From positions 256,001 to 320,000 of the forward strand of contig CAVVEU010000033.1 of assembly GCA_963747235.1 (NCBI GenBank): 64,000 nt of DNA. Reading direction: 5' to 3'. The position numbers were made by a program, and so were the translations under genes. Source of the DNA: an uncultured Candidatus Rokubacteria bacterium. GTDB taxonomy: Bacteria > Methylomirabilota > Methylomirabilia > Rokubacteriales > CSP1-6. The notes below the pieces were generated by a model. That model did no database searches. It saw only the letters and a list, made by a program, of their open reading frames with translations, and was not told the DNA's origin. Of this stretch, positions 7,223 through 13,088 are shown piece after piece (position 1 is the first letter of the stretch; the number at the start of each line of letters is the position of its first letter).

Positions 7223-7632
7223 TGGGCCCGCTCCGCATCCGGCTGGGGCCGCTGACCTTCAGCGCGCGCTGGGAGGAGATCGCCGCGCCACGCACCTGCG
7301 CCGCCTTCCGCCGCCTCCTGCCCTACCGGCAGCGGATCATCCAGGCGCGCTGGAGCGGCGAGGCGGGCTGGATCCCGCTCGGCGAATTCGACCTGGGGGT
7401 GGGCGCGGAGCACGCGACGAGCGAGCCCGCGCCCGGCGCGCTGCTCTTCTATCCCGCCGGCGTCAGCGAGACCGAGATCCTGTTCCCGTACGGCGCCGCG
7501 CGCTTCGCGAGCGTGCACGGCCCGCTGGCCGGCAACCACTTCCTCACGATCGAGGAGGGCCGCGCGCAGCTCCCGGAAGTCGGACGGCTCCTCTGCTGGG
7601 AAGGCGCCCAGGACATCACCTTCGAGGCGTAG
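7222..7632 (+). CDS. DUF3830 family (cyclophilin-like) protein
   Basis: APRTCAAFRRLLP, ARWSGE, SETEILFPYG, AGNHFLTI, WEGAQDI. Confidence 0.8.
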   Translation: MGPLRIRLGPLTFSARWEEIAAPRTCAAFRRLLPYRQRIIQARWSGEAGWIPLGEFDLGVGAEHATSEPAPGALLFYPAGVSETEILFPYGAARFASVHGPLAGNHFLTIEEGRAQLPEVGRLLCWEGAQDITFEA

Positions 7633-8572
7633 CGACCGGGGCGCCGGTCGGCTCCGGCTTCGCGCGCCAGCTCCGCGCCAGCTCCTCGGCACGCACGAGC
7701 TGCTCGGGGTTGAGCTGAGTCTTGACCGAGTCCCGCGCCTGGCGCGCGGTGTCCGCCTCTCGGCCGAGGAGGCTCTGGGCCGCGACGCTGAACCACTGGT
7801 AGGCCCGCACCGGGTCGCGCGCCACGCCCTGGCCGTTGACGTAGCGCACGCCCAGGTTGAACTGCGCGAACGCCACGCCCTGCTCGGCGGCTCGCCGGTA
7901 CCACTTCACGGCCTCGACGTAGTCGCGGGTGACGCCGTCGCCGTTGGCGTAGCGTAGCCCGAGCTGGTACTGCGCGGGCGCGATCCCCTGCTCGGCGGCC
8001 AGCCGGTACCAGTACACCGCCTGCTGGGCGTCCTGGGGCACGCCCTCGCCGGTGGCGTAGCGCACGCCGAGCTGGTACTGGGCGGTGGCGCCGCCGCGAT
8101 CGGCCGCGCTCCGCAGCAGCAGCGCGTCGCGCGTGCCGCCCGGCGTGGGGAGCCGGCCCTCCGCGCGCAGCTCGTCGAGCGCGGCCTGGGCGGCCCGGTT
8201 GCCCCGCGCGGCGGCGCGGCCGTACCAGTCGGCGGCCTGCATGTCGTCCCGGTCCACCCCGCGGCCGTAGGCGTAGAGGAAGCCCAGGCGGAACTGGGCG
8301 TGCACGTCGCCCTGGAGCGCGGCGCGGCGATACCAGGCCACGGCCTCGGCGGGATCCGGCGGCAGGCCCTGCCCGCGCTCGTGCATGAAGCCCACGAGGA
8401 ACTGGGCCGCGGCGTCCCCGCCCTCGGCGAGCGGCTGCCACTCGCGGTAGGCGGTCGCGTAGTCGCCGCGGTCGTAGGCGCGGCGGCCGTCCTCGAACGT
8501 GGCGTGGGCGGGGGCCGCCGCCAGCAGGAGCGCGAGCGCGGCCAGCGCGAGGGCGGCGCGGCGGGGGCTTAC
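7616..8572 (-). CDS. Secreted Sel1-like repeat protein
   Basis: Repeated AQFxLGxxYxxGxGVxxDxxxAVxWYRxAAEQG units; signal peptide ending AHA; no canonical start codon found. Confidence 0.85.
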   Translation of the reverse strand, partial: VSPRRAALALAALALLLAAAPAHATFEDGRRAYDRGDYATAYREWQPLAEGGDAAAQFLVGFMHERGQGLPPDPAEAVAWYRRAALQGDVHAQFRLGFLYAYGRGVDRDDMQAADWYGRAAARGNRAAQAALDELRAEGRLPTPGGTRDALLLRSAADRGGATAQYQLGVRYATGEGVPQDAQQAVYWYRLAAEQGIAPAQYQLGLRYANGDGVTRDYVEAVKWYRRAAEQGVAFAQFNLGVRYVNGQGVARDPVRAYQWFSVAAQSLLGREADTARQARDSVKTQLNPEQLVRAEELARSWRAKPEPTGAPVATPRR

Positions 8573-8880: not shown

Positions 8881-9753
8881 CTAGAGCAGCCCGGGCACGA
8901 ACGCGTCGCGTCCCCGCACGTAGGTGGCCTGACGCTGGGCCGCGTTGCGGTTGATCAGCGGGCGCATGTACATGGGATGGGTCGCGCAGCGAACCTCGTG
9001 CTCGATCTCGGAGAGCTTCCCGCCGCTCTCCGGATCGGCGATGACCTGGAAGCGGTACTGATACGGATTGCTCTCCTCGGTCAGGAGCCCGTGCTCCACC
9101 AGCCAGGCGTGCGGGCCCGAGAAATCGGAGATGTAGACCGCGACGTGATGGCCGTCGTAGGGCGCGATGGCCGCGTCGGTCTCGCGGAACACCATCTCCT
9201 GCCGGTTGCCGACGCTGATGCGCGCGGCCATCCCGGCGTCGTCCTGGCTCACGGAGGCGGTCGCCTGGAGCGCGGTCTTGTAGAAGGACGCGATGCCCGC
9301 GGCGGCGCCGCGCGCCACCGGCACTTCCACGCGCGAGATGCCGAGCGTCATGTCGCCGTACTCGGGCGCGGGGCCCACGCAGCGGAACTGGTTGCCCCAC
9401 GGGCACGTCACCGCCACGTGCTTGTCGCGCATCTCGAAGGCGAACCGGGTGCCCGCGAGCGGCTCCCGCACCGCGGCCAGCCGCCGCATCAGCGCGTCGA
9501 GATCCGGCACCACCATCTCCACGTGGCCCTGCAGCACGTTCGGGGCGCCGGTGGGCAGGTGGAACTGGGTCTGCCCCGCGTTCGCCCACATGTTCTCCAC
9601 GCTCACCATCAGGTAGGGATCGCGCGTCAGCCCGAGCCCCGCGATGTAGAACAGCGTGGCCGCATGCTGGTCCGGCACCCGCACGTTCACGTGCTCCAGC
9701 AGCAAGATGTTGCCGAGATCCTGCTCCCGCCGATCGAACGTCATCCCCGCCAT
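8881..9753 (-). CDS. VOC/glyoxalase-like protein
   Basis: LEHVNVRV..FY..GLGL, HVEMVVPDL, CPWGNQF, HHVAVY: paired beta-alpha-beta-beta-beta pattern. Confidence 0.65.
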   Translation of the reverse strand: MAGMTFDRREQDLGNILLLEHVNVRVPDQHAATLFYIAGLGLTRDPYLMVSVENMWANAGQTQFHLPTGAPNVLQGHVEMVVPDLDALMRRLAAVREPLAGTRFAFEMRDKHVAVTCPWGNQFRCVGPAPEYGDMTLGISRVEVPVARGAAAGIASFYKTALQATASVSQDDAGMAARISVGNRQEMVFRETDAAIAPYDGHHVAVYISDFSGPHAWLVEHGLLTEESNPYQYRFQVIADPESGGKLSEIEHEVRCATHPMYMRPLINRNAAQRQATYVRGRDAFVPGLL

Positions 9754-9792
9754 GGCCCCGGCCCTCCCCGGCCTGGGGGCAAGCATACTATT

Positions 9793-10030: not shown

Positions 10031-10435
10031 TCAGGCCGCCCGGCTGAGCCGGCCGGCCCCGCGGGTGGCGTCCGCCACCCGGCTCTGCTGCCACGGACGG
10101 ACCGCCTGCGGGATCAGGACCAGGCGCAGCCGCGGCGGATCCTGCCGGTCGAGCCGGCGGAAGACATCCTGGGTGAGCCGGGTGATGACGCCGACCATGC
10201 CCTCGCGATGGAGCGGCAGCCGCATCGAGACCGTCCACTCGCCGGTCAGGCTCCGGGTGACCTCGGGCGCCGCGGCGGCGCCCAGCTCGCGGTGGATGGC
10301 GTCGGTCAGCGCGATCTGACGCGCCACGCGCTCCTCGCGGCGCCGCTGGACGCGGCGACTCAGGTCGAGCAGGACCCACACGGCCAGGAATGGAATCAGC
10401 GCGATCATGATCGTGGTCTCCGTCTCCAGGCTCAT
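10031..10435 (-). CDS. Hypothetical single-TM protein
   Basis: GGAGGAG RBS before ATG 10435; TM IMIALIPFLAVWVLL followed by an Arg-rich stretch. Confidence 0.7.
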   Translation of the reverse strand: MSLETETTIMIALIPFLAVWVLLDLSRRVQRRREERVARQIALTDAIHRELGAAAAPEVTRSLTGEWTVSMRLPLHREGMVGVITRLTQDVFRRLDRQDPPRLRLVLIPQAVRPWQQSRVADATRGAGRLSRAA

Positions 10436-10474
10436 CGTTCTCTCCTCCGGTGGTGGCTGCCGTTTCTTCACCCC

Positions 10475-10507
10475 GTGAGACACCGGGGGCGAGACGGTGT
10501 GAAACGG
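10475..10507 (-). promoter_or_regulatory. Putative ECF-sigma promoter, copy 2 (target)
   Basis: Minus strand CCGTTTCACA-CCGTCTCGCCCCCGG-TGTCTCAC; same boxes and 15-nt spacer as copy 1. Confidence 0.7.
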
Positions 10508-10528: not shown

Positions 10529-11494
10529 CTAGGCCGGGAGCGGATGCAGATCGGGCCGGCAGCTGGTGCAGGGCGCGAAGCCGGCGGCCTCGGCGACTTC
10601 CCGCGTCCCGAACAGCGTGAGCGTGGACATCGACATCGACGGGAGCGAGCCGCAGGTCGGCACGCAGTACTCGCGATCCCCGGTGACCATGGTGTACATG
10701 GCCTCGCGGTCCACCTTGAAGTCGTTCCGCGCCTCGACCGTCTTCACGCCCTCGACCGCGAGCAGGCGCTGCTTGAGATCCACGCGGCGGCCCGCGTAGC
10801 CGGTCAGCGCGCCCGAGCCGCCGATGACCCGGTGGCAGGGGATGACGATCGGCAGCGGGTTCCAGCGCAGCGCCTGCGCGACCGGGCGCACCGCGGAGGG
10901 CGCGCCGATGCGCGCCGCGATGCCCGCGTAGGAGGTGACCGCGCCGTAGGGCAGCGCGGCCGTCGCCTCGAGCACGCGCCGCTGGAAATCGCTCCGCATC
11001 CGGCGCAGGTCGAGCGGCCAGTCGAGCCGCGCGCGCCGGCCCTCGAGATACTCCACCAGCTCCGCCCGCAGCCCCTCGGTCGCCGCGCGGTCCTCGACCG
11101 CGTCCTCGCCCAGGAGCCGCCGCACGTGCGCGGACAGCGGGCCGTCCGCGGGCAGGTACTGCACGAGCGCCACGCCCTGCTCGGAGCGGCCGATGAGGAT
11201 GCGCCCCAGCGGCGACGCGAAGATCCCGAAGCCGACCATGCGCGAGCGCAGGTCCGAGAGACGCGAGGCGAGCTGCGCGCGCGCCAGCGTGGCGTCGTCG
11301 TCCGCGAGCGGCGCGCGCCGCAGCGTGCCCATCATGCCCTCCAGCGCGCGGTAGTGCGCGAGCTCGTCCCGGCAGAGCCGGCAACCGGCCACGTGCGCGT
11401 CGACGCGCCCGGCGGCGGCGGGTCCCGCCTCGCCCGCGGCGACGCTCAGGAGGTCCGGCTCGATGGCGCGGCAGAGGGGATGCTGAGGGCTCAT
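10529..11494 (-). CDS. Fusion: ZAS zinc anti-sigma domain + methylated-DNA--protein-cysteine methyltransferase + C-terminal Ada-type Zn domain (321 aa)
   Basis: C-x25-HVAGCRLC; FQRRVL..PYG..SY..IA, NPLPIVIPCHRV, LTGYAG..KQRLLAVEG; YCVPTC...EAAGFAPCTSCRP; ATGA overlap with the sigma gene. Confidence 0.88.
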   Translation of the reverse strand: MSPQHPLCRAIEPDLLSVAAGEAGPAAAGRVDAHVAGCRLCRDELAHYRALEGMMGTLRRAPLADDDATLARAQLASRLSDLRSRMVGFGIFASPLGRILIGRSEQGVALVQYLPADGPLSAHVRRLLGEDAVEDRAATEGLRAELVEYLEGRRARLDWPLDLRRMRSDFQRRVLEATAALPYGAVTSYAGIAARIGAPSAVRPVAQALRWNPLPIVIPCHRVIGGSGALTGYAGRRVDLKQRLLAVEGVKTVEARNDFKVDREAMYTMVTGDREYCVPTCGSLPSMSMSTLTLFGTREVAEAAGFAPCTSCRPDLHPLPA

Positions 11495-12018
11495 GACCGG
11501 GACTCCATTCCGAGCGGGAGATGACCGTCGAGGCCCCGCCGCACCTTGCGGAGGGCCTGGAAGACGTGGGCGCGGGCACTCTCCTCCGAGCAGGAGAGGC
11601 TCGCTCCGATCTCCGCGTATTCGAGCTCGTGCATTTTCCTCATGATGAAGGCCAGTCGCTGCTTGCCGGGCAACCCGCCGATCACCCGCTCCAACCGCTC
11701 GCGCGCCTCGTCGGCCAGCACCAGGCCGTCGGCCCGATCCGGCGCGTCCGGCCGCATTTCCATCGCCGCCGCCGCGTAGGCCCGGCGCCGGCGCCCCTGG
11801 GACCGGAAGTGATTGCGCCCGAGGTTCGTGGCGATCGTGAAGAGCCACGCGCGCACGTTCGAGCCCGGCGGCAGGGCGCGGTACGCCCGGAACGCGCGGA
11901 GAAAGGTCTCCTGCGAGAGATCGTCGGCGTCGCTACCCCGAGCCGTGATCCGCAGCAGGTACCGCCGGATCTCCGCGTGGTGGGCACCCACCACCGCCTC
12001 GAACGCGTCCTCTGCCAT
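11491..12018 (-). CDS. ECF RNA polymerase sigma-70 factor
   Basis: Region 2 DADDLSQETFLRAF...RAWLFTIATN; region 4 LPGKQRLAF...YAEIG.SL.CS..SARAHVFQAL; start 12018 (alternatives 12021, 12030). Confidence 0.92.
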   Translation of the reverse strand: MAEDAFEAVVGAHHAEIRRYLLRITARGSDADDLSQETFLRAFRAYRALPPGSNVRAWLFTIATNLGRNHFRSQGRRRRAYAAAAMEMRPDAPDRADGLVLADEARERLERVIGGLPGKQRLAFIMRKMHELEYAEIGASLSCSEESARAHVFQALRKVRRGLDGHLPLGMESRS

Positions 12019-12028
12019 CACTCTAGCC

Positions 12029-12061
12029 ATGAGACACCGCCGCCGGCCGGGTGTGAAACGG
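12029..12061 (-). promoter_or_regulatory. Putative ECF-sigma promoter, copy 1 (autoregulatory, leaderless)
   Basis: Minus strand CCGTTTCACA-CCCGGCCGGCGGCGG-TGTCTCAT, a few nt upstream of GTG/ATG 12021/12018; no SD. Confidence 0.7.
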
Positions 12062-12077
12062 CCCCCCCCGGCGCGCG

Positions 12078-13053
12078 CTAACCCCCTGTTCCGGCGCGCG
12101 TCTTGAGCGCAGCCGCCTGCTGCTCCCGGACGAAGCGGAGGGCGGTCACCGTGCTCACGGCCAGGCTCATGGCCACCGAGACCAGGAGGGTGGCCACCAG
12201 GGTCAGGAGCACCGCACGCTGGTTCTCGAGGATCTGGCGCACCGAGGCCGCGAAGACCAGGTCCACCTTGAGCGTGGGCATCACCGCCTGGGTGAGGAGC
12301 CACTCGTCGTCCTCGCCCAGGGTGACCAGGCCGTCGAATTGGCGCCGGCCCAGCCCCGCCACGAACGGGTGATTCTTCCAGTCTTCCTGGGTAAGCTGGC
12401 GGGTCTTCTGGTCCATGTAGATCGCCTGCTTGCCCGCGTCGATCATGATCAGCCAGCCTCCGGGGCCGACCTGCTCGATGGCCTCGATGGATCCCTGCAG
12501 CCGGATGCTCCCGATCAGGTAGGCGACGATCTGCTCGTCCAGCTTGATCGGCACCGCGGCGCCCACGATGAAATCGCGCGAGGCCCGGCCGAAGATGATG
12601 CCGGAGACGGCGGGCCCCTGCAGGCGAATGGCCTCCTGCAGCAGCGGCCGGTCCGCGTAGCGCAGCTCGAGATTGGACGGTGCCGTCCGGCCCGGTGAGC
12701 GGGCTGAACGCGAGCGGCCGGCCGTCGGGCGACACCACGAAGAGCGTCGGCATCTGCAGCATCGCCCGGATCGCGTCGATCTCGCGCTGCAGCGCGCGCG
12801 GCTCGTGCGAGGCCCAGCTCTGGGCGAAGTGGGCGGCGAGCGGGCCGAGGGCGGCGAGCTTGTCGCGCACCTGGGAGTCGGCCAGCCCCGCGAGCACGCG
12901 CACGATGTCCTGGCGCTGGGCGCGCGCGTCCCGGAGCGCCTGCGGCTTGAGCCGGAGCGTCCACGCGAGCCCCACCACCAGCAGGGCCACCACGGACACC
13001 ACCGCCCACGTGGAGAGAAGGAAGAACAGGTGCGACCAGCGGAAACCCGTCAT
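12078..13053 (-). CDS. Membrane protein with dCache-like periplasmic sensor domain and no output domain (frameshift ~12675)
   Basis: TM1 at N-terminus; YADRPLLQEAI..GPAVSGIIFGRAS..VGAAVPI..IVAYLIGSI Cache signature; TM2 then ~20-aa tail. Confidence 0.65.
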
Positions 13054-13088
13054 GGCGCCCCTCGTCATGGCGACAGATGATACCGCGC

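Follow-up and report, generated by a model that had tools for sequence, protein, structure and literature searches.

Sigma factors of the extracytoplasmic function (ECF) type serve as a main signalling device of bacteria, and the input is unknown for many of their groups, including ECF122, a group linked to the O6-methylguanine DNA methyltransferase (MGMT). The adaptive response has so far been known through Ada-type DNA-binding activators, and in Escherichia coli Ada the residue Cys38 accepts a methyl group from methylphosphotriesters. A 2022 review describes ECF122 as having conserved 6-O-methylguanine DNA methyltransferases nearby, as in a Cellulomonas example, together with no cognate anti-sigma factor and an unknown mechanism (PMC8999054). 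Here we report a locus in a 64,000-nucleotide (nt) stretch of DNA from an uncultured Candidatus Rokubacteria bacterium of the phylum Methylomirabilota (contig CAVVEU010000033.1 of assembly GCA_963747235.1, positions 256,001 to 320,000; hereafter the window, with a G+C content of about 72%), in which an ECF sigma gene is followed by a gene for a predicted zinc anti-sigma (ZAS) domain fused to an MGMT and an Ada-type zinc (AdaZn) domain. The locus is a more elaborate variant of the catalogued, unexplained sigma-MGMT pairing. It offers a testable mechanism, namely a suicide repair enzyme that would double as anti-sigma factor, so that its consumption would report DNA alkylation and order its own replacement. 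We see an even chance that the locus is an autoregulated ECF module in which alkyl transfer destabilises the anti-sigma/repair fusion and thereby frees the sigma factor.

The sigma and fusion genes both lie on the minus strand, the former upstream and the latter downstream (coordinates are collected in Table 1), and the first-pass annotation, which had been made from the letters alone, placed the sigma start at 12018 and claimed an ATGA overlap between the two genes. The overlap of the sigma TGA with the fusion ATG can be read directly at 11491-11494, and the start codon is conserved across loci; another in-frame ATG at 12030, upstream of it, overlaps a promoter-like motif and is missing in some relatives. 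The 4-nt overlap suggests translational coupling and near-equal amounts of sigma factor and fusion protein. The product of the first gene matched the Pfam profiles Sigma70_r2 with 61.6 bits and Sigma70_r4_2 with 45.1 bits and the NCBIfam model TIGR02937 (sigma70-ECF) with 85.9 bits, where the cut-off is 42.9; none of the NCBIfam equivalog models reached its cut-off for it. On the Pfam matches it has regions 2 and 4 only, within 175-179 amino acids (aa), as expected of an ECF factor of about 170-200 aa.

The N-terminal domain of the fusion carries the motif C8-x25-H34-x3-C38-x2-C41. The Pfam profile zf-HC2 (PF13490) matched its residues 8-42 with 18.9 bits, under the cut-off of 22.2, and matched 23 of the 28 family members at E<=0.01, the best of them at 9.7e-07. 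The AlphaFold2 model of the fusion (predicted local distance difference test, pLDDT, 81; predicted template-modelling score, pTM, 0.65) consists of four N-terminal helices (residues 6-19, 25-37, 39-60 and 68-85), two MGMT domains and a small beta-rich C-terminal domain. When the sigma alignment was co-folded with residues 1-90 of the fusion alignment, the repair domains being left out, the score was 0.76 (0.76, 0.74 and 0.76 in the individual runs), against 0.14 for the best of three controls; the mark reached here was also reached by 58 of 80 solved complexes and by 2 of 110 mismatched pairs. The runs shared at least 82% of their contacts, and the pLDDT of the partner was at least 83. The predicted contacts involve sigma residues 7-47 in region 2 and 109-173 in region 4, and on the partner side residues 12-20 in helix 1 and residues 47-83, among the latter L75 and L79, which are invariant, and R59, which nearly is. 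These predictions support the view that the N-terminal domain is a sigma-binding anti-sigma domain, one that would be expected to bind zinc and to inhibit sigma-dependent transcription. Because ZAS/ECF complexes have already been solved, the pass in the co-folding shows likeness to them rather than binding by this copy; it may reflect resemblance to the solved complexes, and binding by this copy is a prediction.

The two following domains form the MGMT part, in which Methyltransf_1N (PF02870) matched residues 90-163 with 24.5 bits (cut-off 21) and DNA_binding_1 (PF01035) matched residues 169-250 with 97.1 bits (cut-off 27), and the NCBIfam model TIGR00589 scored 92.3 bits on the fusion against a cut-off of 46.4. 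The active-site motif reads P219-C220-H221-R222-V. The best Foldseek match was the C-terminal part of E. coli Ada (Ada-C, 1sfe; E 1.9e-10, template-modelling score on the target 0.80), other top matches include 4zye and 4wxd, and the alignments to whole Ogt/Ada-C structures covered 163-173 columns. We take Y189, R203, N212 and E248 to be the conserved Tyr, the Arg finger, the Asn hinge and the Glu, equivalent to human Y114, R128, N137 and E172. Human R128, C145 and N137 are named in PMC4605297. By motif, profile and fold the MGMT part is a complete Ogt/MGMT whose matches are solved, active alkyltransferases, and stoichiometric alkyl transfer is predicted for it.

At the C-terminus stands the motif Y276-C277-VPT-C281 ... 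P308-C309-TS-C312-RP. Ada_Zn_binding (PF02805) matched residues 265-315 with 31 bits (cut-off 23; profile positions 16-65 of 65) and was matched by all 28 family members, and a phmmer comparison of the C-terminal 73 aa with N-Ada10 (1adn) gave E 0.0011 with the four cysteines in register. The N-Ada/DNA structures 1u8b and 1zgw were weak Foldseek matches (E 0.57 and 0.64, probabilities 0.75 and 0.72) at ranks 43-44, too weak alone, and they are the first matches outside the family of MGMT and alkyltransferase-like proteins. The second and third of these cysteines are spaced by 27 residues here, with a one-residue gap in the 1adn alignment, against 26 in E. coli Ada. By likeness to E. coli Ada, methyl transfer to the first cysteine of this domain may be predicted. 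The AraC-type helix-turn-helix (HTH) is absent from the fusion, in which no Pfam match to HTH_18 or HTH_AraC was found at E<=1. The PCHR alkyltransferase and the C-terminal Ada zinc site that the first-pass annotation had pointed out thus agree with the profiles, 1sfe and 1adn; among the four Pfam profiles that it had named for the fusion, Methyltransf_1N, DNA_binding_1 and Ada_Zn_binding exceeded their cut-offs and zf-HC2 did not, and its assignment of the N-terminal domain as a sigma-binding anti-sigma domain is backed by the aforementioned four-helix model and co-folding, as predictions.

All three parts are conserved among the homologues. In 28 of 28 aligned homologues with 59-93% identity, the residues C8, H34, C38 and C41 of the anti-sigma motif, Y189, R203, N212, P219-C220-H221-R222 and E248 of the MGMT, and C277, C281, C309 and C312 of the Ada motif are invariant. 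A search of 5.8 billion proteins gave more than 100 full-length homologues, 64-93% identical, and those with a named source come from metagenome-assembled genomes of Methylomirabilota/Rokuibacteriota. Some match was present in 186 of the 201 phylum genomes sampled, and a hand count gave a long match (E<=1e-55) in 123 of the 200 other than that of the window; domain-only matches in the phylum table were at 1e-30 or weaker and never at E<=1e-55, and five unpublished genomes are counted within these tallies. By family, the long match occurred in 102/125 genomes of f1, 15/16 of f2 and 6/15 of f10, whereas no genome of f5-f7 or f9, the families of the phylum sample with small genomes, had it. The gene order is likewise kept. 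Among 30 loci from 30 genomes, the sigma gene and the fusion were found in all 30, the sigma gene standing directly before the fusion, and the small gene behind them in 29 (the thirtieth locus is cut off); the 4-nt overlap was present in 25 of the 29 loci where it could be assessed. The three-domain architecture and the linkage to an ECF sigma factor that had been read from the single sequence are therefore borne out by the Pfam domains, the residue conservation and the synteny. Four RNA libraries yielded contigs with 90-99% likeness to the window that span most of the sigma and fusion genes; three of them bridge the junction of the two genes (X15 record 2, 10556-11893; X16 record 16, 11385-12165; X17 record 20, 11093-11554), and one of the bridging contigs extends beyond the putative promoter. 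Bins that these libraries do not cover (10370-10443, most of the small gene) carry no weight.

A promoter-like motif stands before the sigma gene and a second copy stands behind the fusion gene. From the sequence we infer that it is a promoter with an ECF-type -35 element (TTTCAC) and a -10 element (GTCT), the distance from TTTCAC to GTC being 17 nt, which agrees with the spacing in ECF promoters. The window contains two exact copies where shuffled sequences give an expectation of 0, and across the 5.57-Mb genome the core TTTCAC-N15-G(G/T)GTCTCA occurs at four sites only; a reversed control motif had no site in any of 41 genomes. Before the sigma gene the strict pattern was found in 25 of 28 relatives and a relaxed one in all 28, and after the fusion gene the corresponding numbers were 21/29 and 29/29, with the relaxed motif occurring in 0 of 30 intragenic control stretches. 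The -10-like element ends just 11 nt ahead of the sigma ATG, with no Shine-Dalgarno sequence visible between the two, and on this sequence the sigma mRNA would be leaderless or near-leaderless.

The other two copies in the genome, and the copies in related genomes, point to a putative regulon. The third copy (contig C4 of the window's genome G000, 94135-94163; L001:4170-5131) precedes a gene for an ABM-like protein of 115 aa, which has sub-threshold Pfam matches only, and an overlapping DUF2652 gene (93.4 bits); five further genomes (L032, L046, L048, L052 and L055) likewise have DUF2652 after the motif. The fourth copy (G000 contig C8:497804-498786; L057, L149) precedes a DUF1706 gene of the ClbS family (L057:1567-2016; 32.1 bits), and a second MGMT gene starts in overlap with the stop of the latter. 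This second MGMT matches positions 1-70 of the 81 of PF01035 and its 3' end appears to be frameshifted; the out-of-register C-terminus could be due to a frameshift, a pseudogene or an assembly error. In other family genomes the motif was found in eleven loci, before DUF2652 (5), DUF1706 (3) and DinB_2 (2) genes, and the DinB-superfamily genes scored 40.9 and 49.1 bits for DinB_2 and 21.1 and 23.3 bits for MST (cut-off 27). DUF1706 includes ClbS, which detoxifies the DNA alkylator colibactin by opening its cyclopropane (PMC10693628). We infer from these gene families a small, self-inducing regulon that would lean to alkylation and electrophile defence. As a separate observation, L015 has, downstream of its sigma locus, a stretch that to the eye resembles the N-terminus of DUF2652.

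The pairing of sigma factor and MGMT extends beyond the phylum. When 1.84 billion cluster representatives were scanned, 61 matches at E<=1e-30 were obtained, in which we distinguish the triple fusion (e.g., P0130, P0134, P0142, P0192 and P0216), a ZAS-MGMT form that lacks the Ada domain (alignment A3, with 11 sequences) and MGMT plus AdaZn without ZAS (e.g., P0173, P0185, P0186, P0194 and P0257). In named genomes, 48 of 80 MGMT loci have an ECF sigma gene immediately upstream in the same orientation, and the two genes often overlap by 4 nt; the set of 80 is biased by the NP..PCH active-site pattern and by the ranking against P0243 with which it was drawn. These 48 loci belong mostly to Actinomycetota (Solirubrobacterales, Acidimicrobiia, Gaiellales and Mycobacterium sp.) and Chloroflexota, and their MGMTs are of about 200 aa with an N-terminal extension of 40-55 aa, HxxxCxxC occurring, within the whole set of 80, only in L072 (Dehalococcoidia). 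A further 80 loci, from metagenomes and related to the distant triple fusion P0192, all retain PCHR together with the Ada cysteines; the sigma gene is upstream in 57 of 57 assessable loci, and HxxxCxxC is present in only 2. The short extensions align with the segment of the window protein consisting of LRxxP plus helix 4, which is the site of many of the predicted sigma contacts. At the sigma start, CTCAC-N16/17-CGTT was found in 34 of the 48 sigma-linked loci of named genomes (within L062-L141) and in 0 of 48 controls, a placement that suggests leaderless, autoregulated operons as in the window. A quick tree of 60 sigma rows, for which 9 sigmas out of the 26 in A2 and 43 out of the 48 linked ones were chosen (both by a minimum of 130 matched profile positions) and 8 own-genome paralogues served as the only outgroups, places the window family and the 43 MGMT-linked sigmas on one side of a branch marked 97 with an asterisk and six own-genome paralogues on the opposite side. 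This topology is compatible with a single origin of the MGMT-linked sigmas and does not demonstrate it. The constant companion of the sigma factor across phyla is a catalytically intact MGMT and the zinc motif is seldom present, and this pattern, as comparative evidence, favours the MGMT, not the zinc site, as the conserved functional partner.

The proposed module can be described step by step. In the resting state the N-terminal four-helix zinc domain would clamp sigma regions 2 and 4. Transfer of an alkyl group from O6-alkylguanine onto Cys220 would modify the fusion irreversibly, and the Ada zinc domain may likewise take a methyl group from a methylphosphotriester onto the Cys277-equivalent. 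Alkylated alkyltransferases are permanently inactive, destabilised through the connection of their N- and C-domains, and degraded in human cells, in archaea and in vitro (PMC4605297). In the window protein the N-domain of the MGMT follows immediately on helix 4 of the anti-sigma domain, and because of this continuity and of the known destabilisation we hold alkylation-driven release to be the likeliest mechanism; unfolding or proteolysis of the alkylated fusion would then release the sigma factor. The free sigma factor would transcribe from TTTCAC-N15-G(G/T)GTCTCA its own operon, the small membrane protein gene, the ABM-like and DUF2652 genes, and DUF1706 with the second MGMT. Induction of its own operon would supply both fresh sigma factor and fresh repair/anti-sigma protein, and once the lesions have been cleared, unmodified fusion would accumulate and recapture the sigma factor.

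A broader proposal, which we advance tentatively and regard as possible rather than probable, is that MGMT itself serves as the anti-sigma factor in a multi-phylum ECF class made up of ECF122 and relatives in Actinomycetota, Chloroflexota, Methylomirabilota and others. The conserved N-terminal LRxxP-plus-helix segment, which adjoins the N-domain of the alkyltransferase, would hold the sigma factor, irreversible one-shot alkyl transfer would be the signal, and lesions would be counted stoichiometrically, in that one repaired lesion would free one sigma molecule and lead to one replacement repair protein. The window protein would then be the most elaborate form of the class, in which a full zinc clamp is placed on sigma region 4 and the Ada zinc domain provides phosphotriesters as a further lesion input.

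Other ways of operating the same genes have to be weighed against alkylation-driven release. In one of them, which we consider unlikely, the zinc site is the sensor, as in RsrA/SigR: oxidants or soft electrophiles would directly hit the zinc thiolates of C8/H34/C38/C41, zinc would be lost and the sigma factor freed, with MGMT-AdaZn as a fused effector without a signalling role. None of the four ligands varies among the 28 homologues, their spacing equals that of C11, H37, C41 and C44 in RsrA, the DinB-superfamily genes of the regulon would suit thiol and electrophile detoxification, and fusion of neighbouring operon genes, here from sigma / anti-sigma / ogt to sigma / anti-sigma-ogt, is a common event. 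However, the constant neighbour of the sigma gene is the MGMT, the zinc motif being found in 1 of 48 sigma-linked genome loci (L072) and 2 of 57 metagenome loci, and zinc is only structural in many ZAS proteins. A zinc sensor would also leave unexplained why the catalytic PCHR is retained in 80 of 80 metagenome loci and 28 of 28 family members.

It is likewise improbable, in our judgement, that the MGMT is mere cargo, the sigma factor serving to express the repair protein along with some detoxification genes and being held by the N-terminal domain until something else, for instance a protease, a partner, the small membrane protein or the growth phase, releases it, or with transcription of the operon as the main driver of the module. 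The conserved small membrane protein directly behind the operon, which has a motif copy of its own, and the mostly uncharacterised regulon members would fit such a scheme, as would the filing of ECF122 with no recognised anti-sigma factor and an unknown mechanism in PMC8999054. The 4-nt overlap and the predicted 1:1 binding are nevertheless the pattern of a sigma/anti-sigma pair, and a soluble anti-sigma domain joined to a suicide enzyme whose own reaction destabilises it (PMC4605297) offers an obvious built-in signal. Non-covalent DNA tethering, in which binding of MGMT and AdaZn to damaged DNA, or to DNA of any kind, displaces the anti-sigma domain or competes with it sterically and the signal is lesion recognition rather than alkyl transfer, is very improbable: both repair domains are DNA-binding folds and the DNA affinity of N-Ada rises on methylation, but contact of the repair domains with the sigma factor lacks support, the co-folding having covered residues 1-90 only, and non-covalent binding gives neither memory nor a stoichiometric read-out.

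Several observations weigh against alkylation-driven release or reduce the force of the evidence for it. The zf-HC2 score of the window protein lies below the Pfam cut-off, and direct thiol sensing of the RsrA type would account just as well for the invariant zinc cysteines. The junction-bridging RNA contigs are sequences of relatives and possibly DNA carry-over, from which start, strand and level are not readable. No more than 20 of the 41 family genomes gave a site for the strict motif; since relaxed variants of the motif exist, the blank in the other 21 does not mean absence. Within the motif-defined regulon there is no AlkA, AlkB or AidB, most members (DUF2652, the small membrane protein and the ABM-like protein) are without known function, and the second MGMT, apparently frameshifted at its 3' end, is present in only one of four DUF1706 loci, that of the window's genome. 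Two long-branch sigma paralogues group with the MGMT-linked side of the tree, which has 8 outgroups only, and in the pairs without an anti-sigma domain the MGMT could be just the main target gene of the sigma factor. Lastly, a canonical AdaN-HTH-AlkA regulator is present in the genome, i.e., a conventional controller of the alkylation response exists.

This last point bears on how the module should be placed beside Ada. The same genome contains a nearly identical pair of canonical AdaN-HTH_18-AlkA_N-HhH-GPD genes as well as a plain Ogt and, on contig C40, an MGMT-AdaZn paralogue, and the HTH_18 match in its Ada-like gene scores 74 bits. The AdaN-HTH(AraC)-AlkA genes were located on separate contigs (C19:23363-23557, L142, and C24:2546-2740, L143), and they may be a true duplication or redundant contigs, the contamination of the assembly being 4.9%. 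Since canonical Ada genes are kept in the genome, the sigma module adds to the Ada system and is not a replacement of it. The first-pass annotation had regarded the fusion as a rearranged Ada in which a soluble anti-sigma domain took the place of the activator; the absence of the HTH and the C-terminal position of AdaZn stand, and the replacement of the activator does not, the canonical AdaN-HTH-AlkA genes having been kept. Considered as a whole, its observation is confirmed and its interpretation is supported in part: for the architecture, the ECF linkage and, as a prediction, the anti-sigma domain, and not for a rearranged Ada as replacement. Because canonical Ada is kept and MGMT-AdaZn proteins without an anti-sigma domain exist, the fusion looks, on sequence comparison, like an existing MGMT-AdaZn repair protein to which an anti-sigma domain has been added.

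Table 1. Features of the sigma-MGMT locus (positions in the window)
Feature	Position	Strand	Remarks
ECF-type sigma open reading frame	11491..12018	(-)	175 aa from conserved ATG at 12018-12016 (MAEDAF...)
Fusion open reading frame	10529-11494	(-)	321 aa plus stop
Predicted zinc anti-sigma domain, class-I-like	11231..11494	(-)	fusion residues 1-88
MGMT N-terminal (ribonuclease-like) domain	11000..11230	(-)	fusion residues 89-165
MGMT catalytic/DNA-binding domain	10742..10999	(-)	fusion residues 166-251
Ada-N-type Cys4 zinc domain	10529..10741	(-)	fusion residues 252-321 plus stop codon
Promoter-like motif 1, GTTTCACAC-N12-GGTGTCTCA	12030..12059	(-)	11 nt before sigma ATG
Promoter-like motif 2, GTTTCACAC-N12-GGTGTCTCA	10476..10505	(-)	24 nt after fusion stop, upstream of small gene
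Small protein, 134 aa	10031..10435	(-)	hydrophobic N-terminal stretch, no known family

The small protein is presumed to be the product of the first regulon gene behind motif 2. It had no Pfam or NCBIfam match, its nearest Atlas clusters are hypothetical proteins of Methylomirabilota/Rokuibacteriota only, and its membrane segment was judged by eye. In six loci (L003, L005, L006, L015, L018 and L026) an extra short open reading frame (ORF) with a hydrophobic stretch lies directly behind motif 2, before the small gene. Further downstream on the minus strand of the window are a 301-aa protein with faint glyoxalase-family matches only (8881-9786; E 0.004) and a protein with a signal peptide and Sel1-like repeats as seen by eye (7616-8560). 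Upstream of the sigma gene, two minus-strand ORFs in different frames, one with a hydrophobic N-terminus (12680-13068) and one with a hydrophobic C-terminus (12078-12566), have no Pfam match and may be one membrane protein split by a frameshift; the ORF at 12078-12566 is kept in 15 loci, i.e., in the window and in 14 of 29 others, all of one genus.

Concerning novelty, the first-pass annotation knew of no characterised example. Our literature search, whose coverage excludes most subscription journals, found no description of an anti-sigma/MGMT fusion and no test of an ECF-MGMT pair, so that for the fusion this statement stands; the linkage of ECF sigma factors to MGMT, on the other hand, is already catalogued as ECF122, a group of the ECF classification of Casas-Pastor et al. 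(2021), in PMC8999054, the only paper found to connect the two. The main texts of PMC7826278 and PMC7406223 make no mention of this linkage, and the description of ECF122 is presumably in the supplement of PMC7826278, where a zinc finger or a role as anti-sigma factor may have been recorded already.

If the proposed mechanism is true, it would explain a gene pairing that is conserved in at least four phyla of soil bacteria, and it would add a sigma-sequestration design to the adaptive response. It would also provide a compact, orthogonal biosensor of alkylation damage, composed of a sigma factor, an anti-sigma factor and a defined promoter, and it would link DUF2652, ClbS-family and DinB-family genes to alkylation or electrophile stress. 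The broader proposal, if true, would give a third, sigma-based design of the adaptive response and the first anti-sigma factor to be inactivated by its own catalytic turnover.

We finally compare the locus with the known systems. With ECF122 it shares an ECF sigma factor with an adjacent 6-O-methylguanine DNA methyltransferase gene, as described in PMC8999054; this likeness is one of gene pairing. In contrast to ECF122, the partner in the window, which comes from Methylomirabilota, combines a full predicted zinc anti-sigma domain with an additional zinc domain of the Ada type. The promoter-like motifs of the other sigma-MGMT pairs and of the window have a -35-like TCAC in common and differ in the -10 part (CTCAC-N16/17-CGTT versus TTTCAC-N15-GKGTCTCA). 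The RsrA-SigR, ChrR-SigE and RslA-SigL systems resemble the window locus in having a soluble C...HxxxCxxC anti-sigma factor, a co-transcribed ECF sigma factor and an autoregulated promoter, the last being predicted here, and also in the four-helix domain that is predicted to touch sigma regions 2 and 4. Unlike them, the window anti-sigma protein has two C-terminal DNA-repair domains and a zf-HC2 match under the cut-off, and the signal proposed for it is alkyl transfer at a distal domain and not chemistry at the zinc site.

Stand-alone MGMT-AdaZn proteins have the same order of an MGMT followed by a C-terminal Ada-type zinc domain and differ in the lack of the N-terminal anti-sigma domain, although many of the P0192-related forms are still linked to a sigma factor through a short extension. 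E. coli Ada, AdaA/AdaB and AdaA-AlkA share with the window protein a Cys4-zinc domain of the methylphosphotriester type and a PCHR alkyltransferase, and E. coli Ada is, as proposed for the fusion, a suicide repair protein that governs its own synthesis. The fusion differs from E. coli Ada in having no AraC-type HTH and in the position of the MGMT before AdaZn, which is the reverse of the order in Ada. Whereas Ada activates sigma70 promoters from its DNA-bound state, the output of the window module would be exerted through sequestration and release of an ECF sigma factor.

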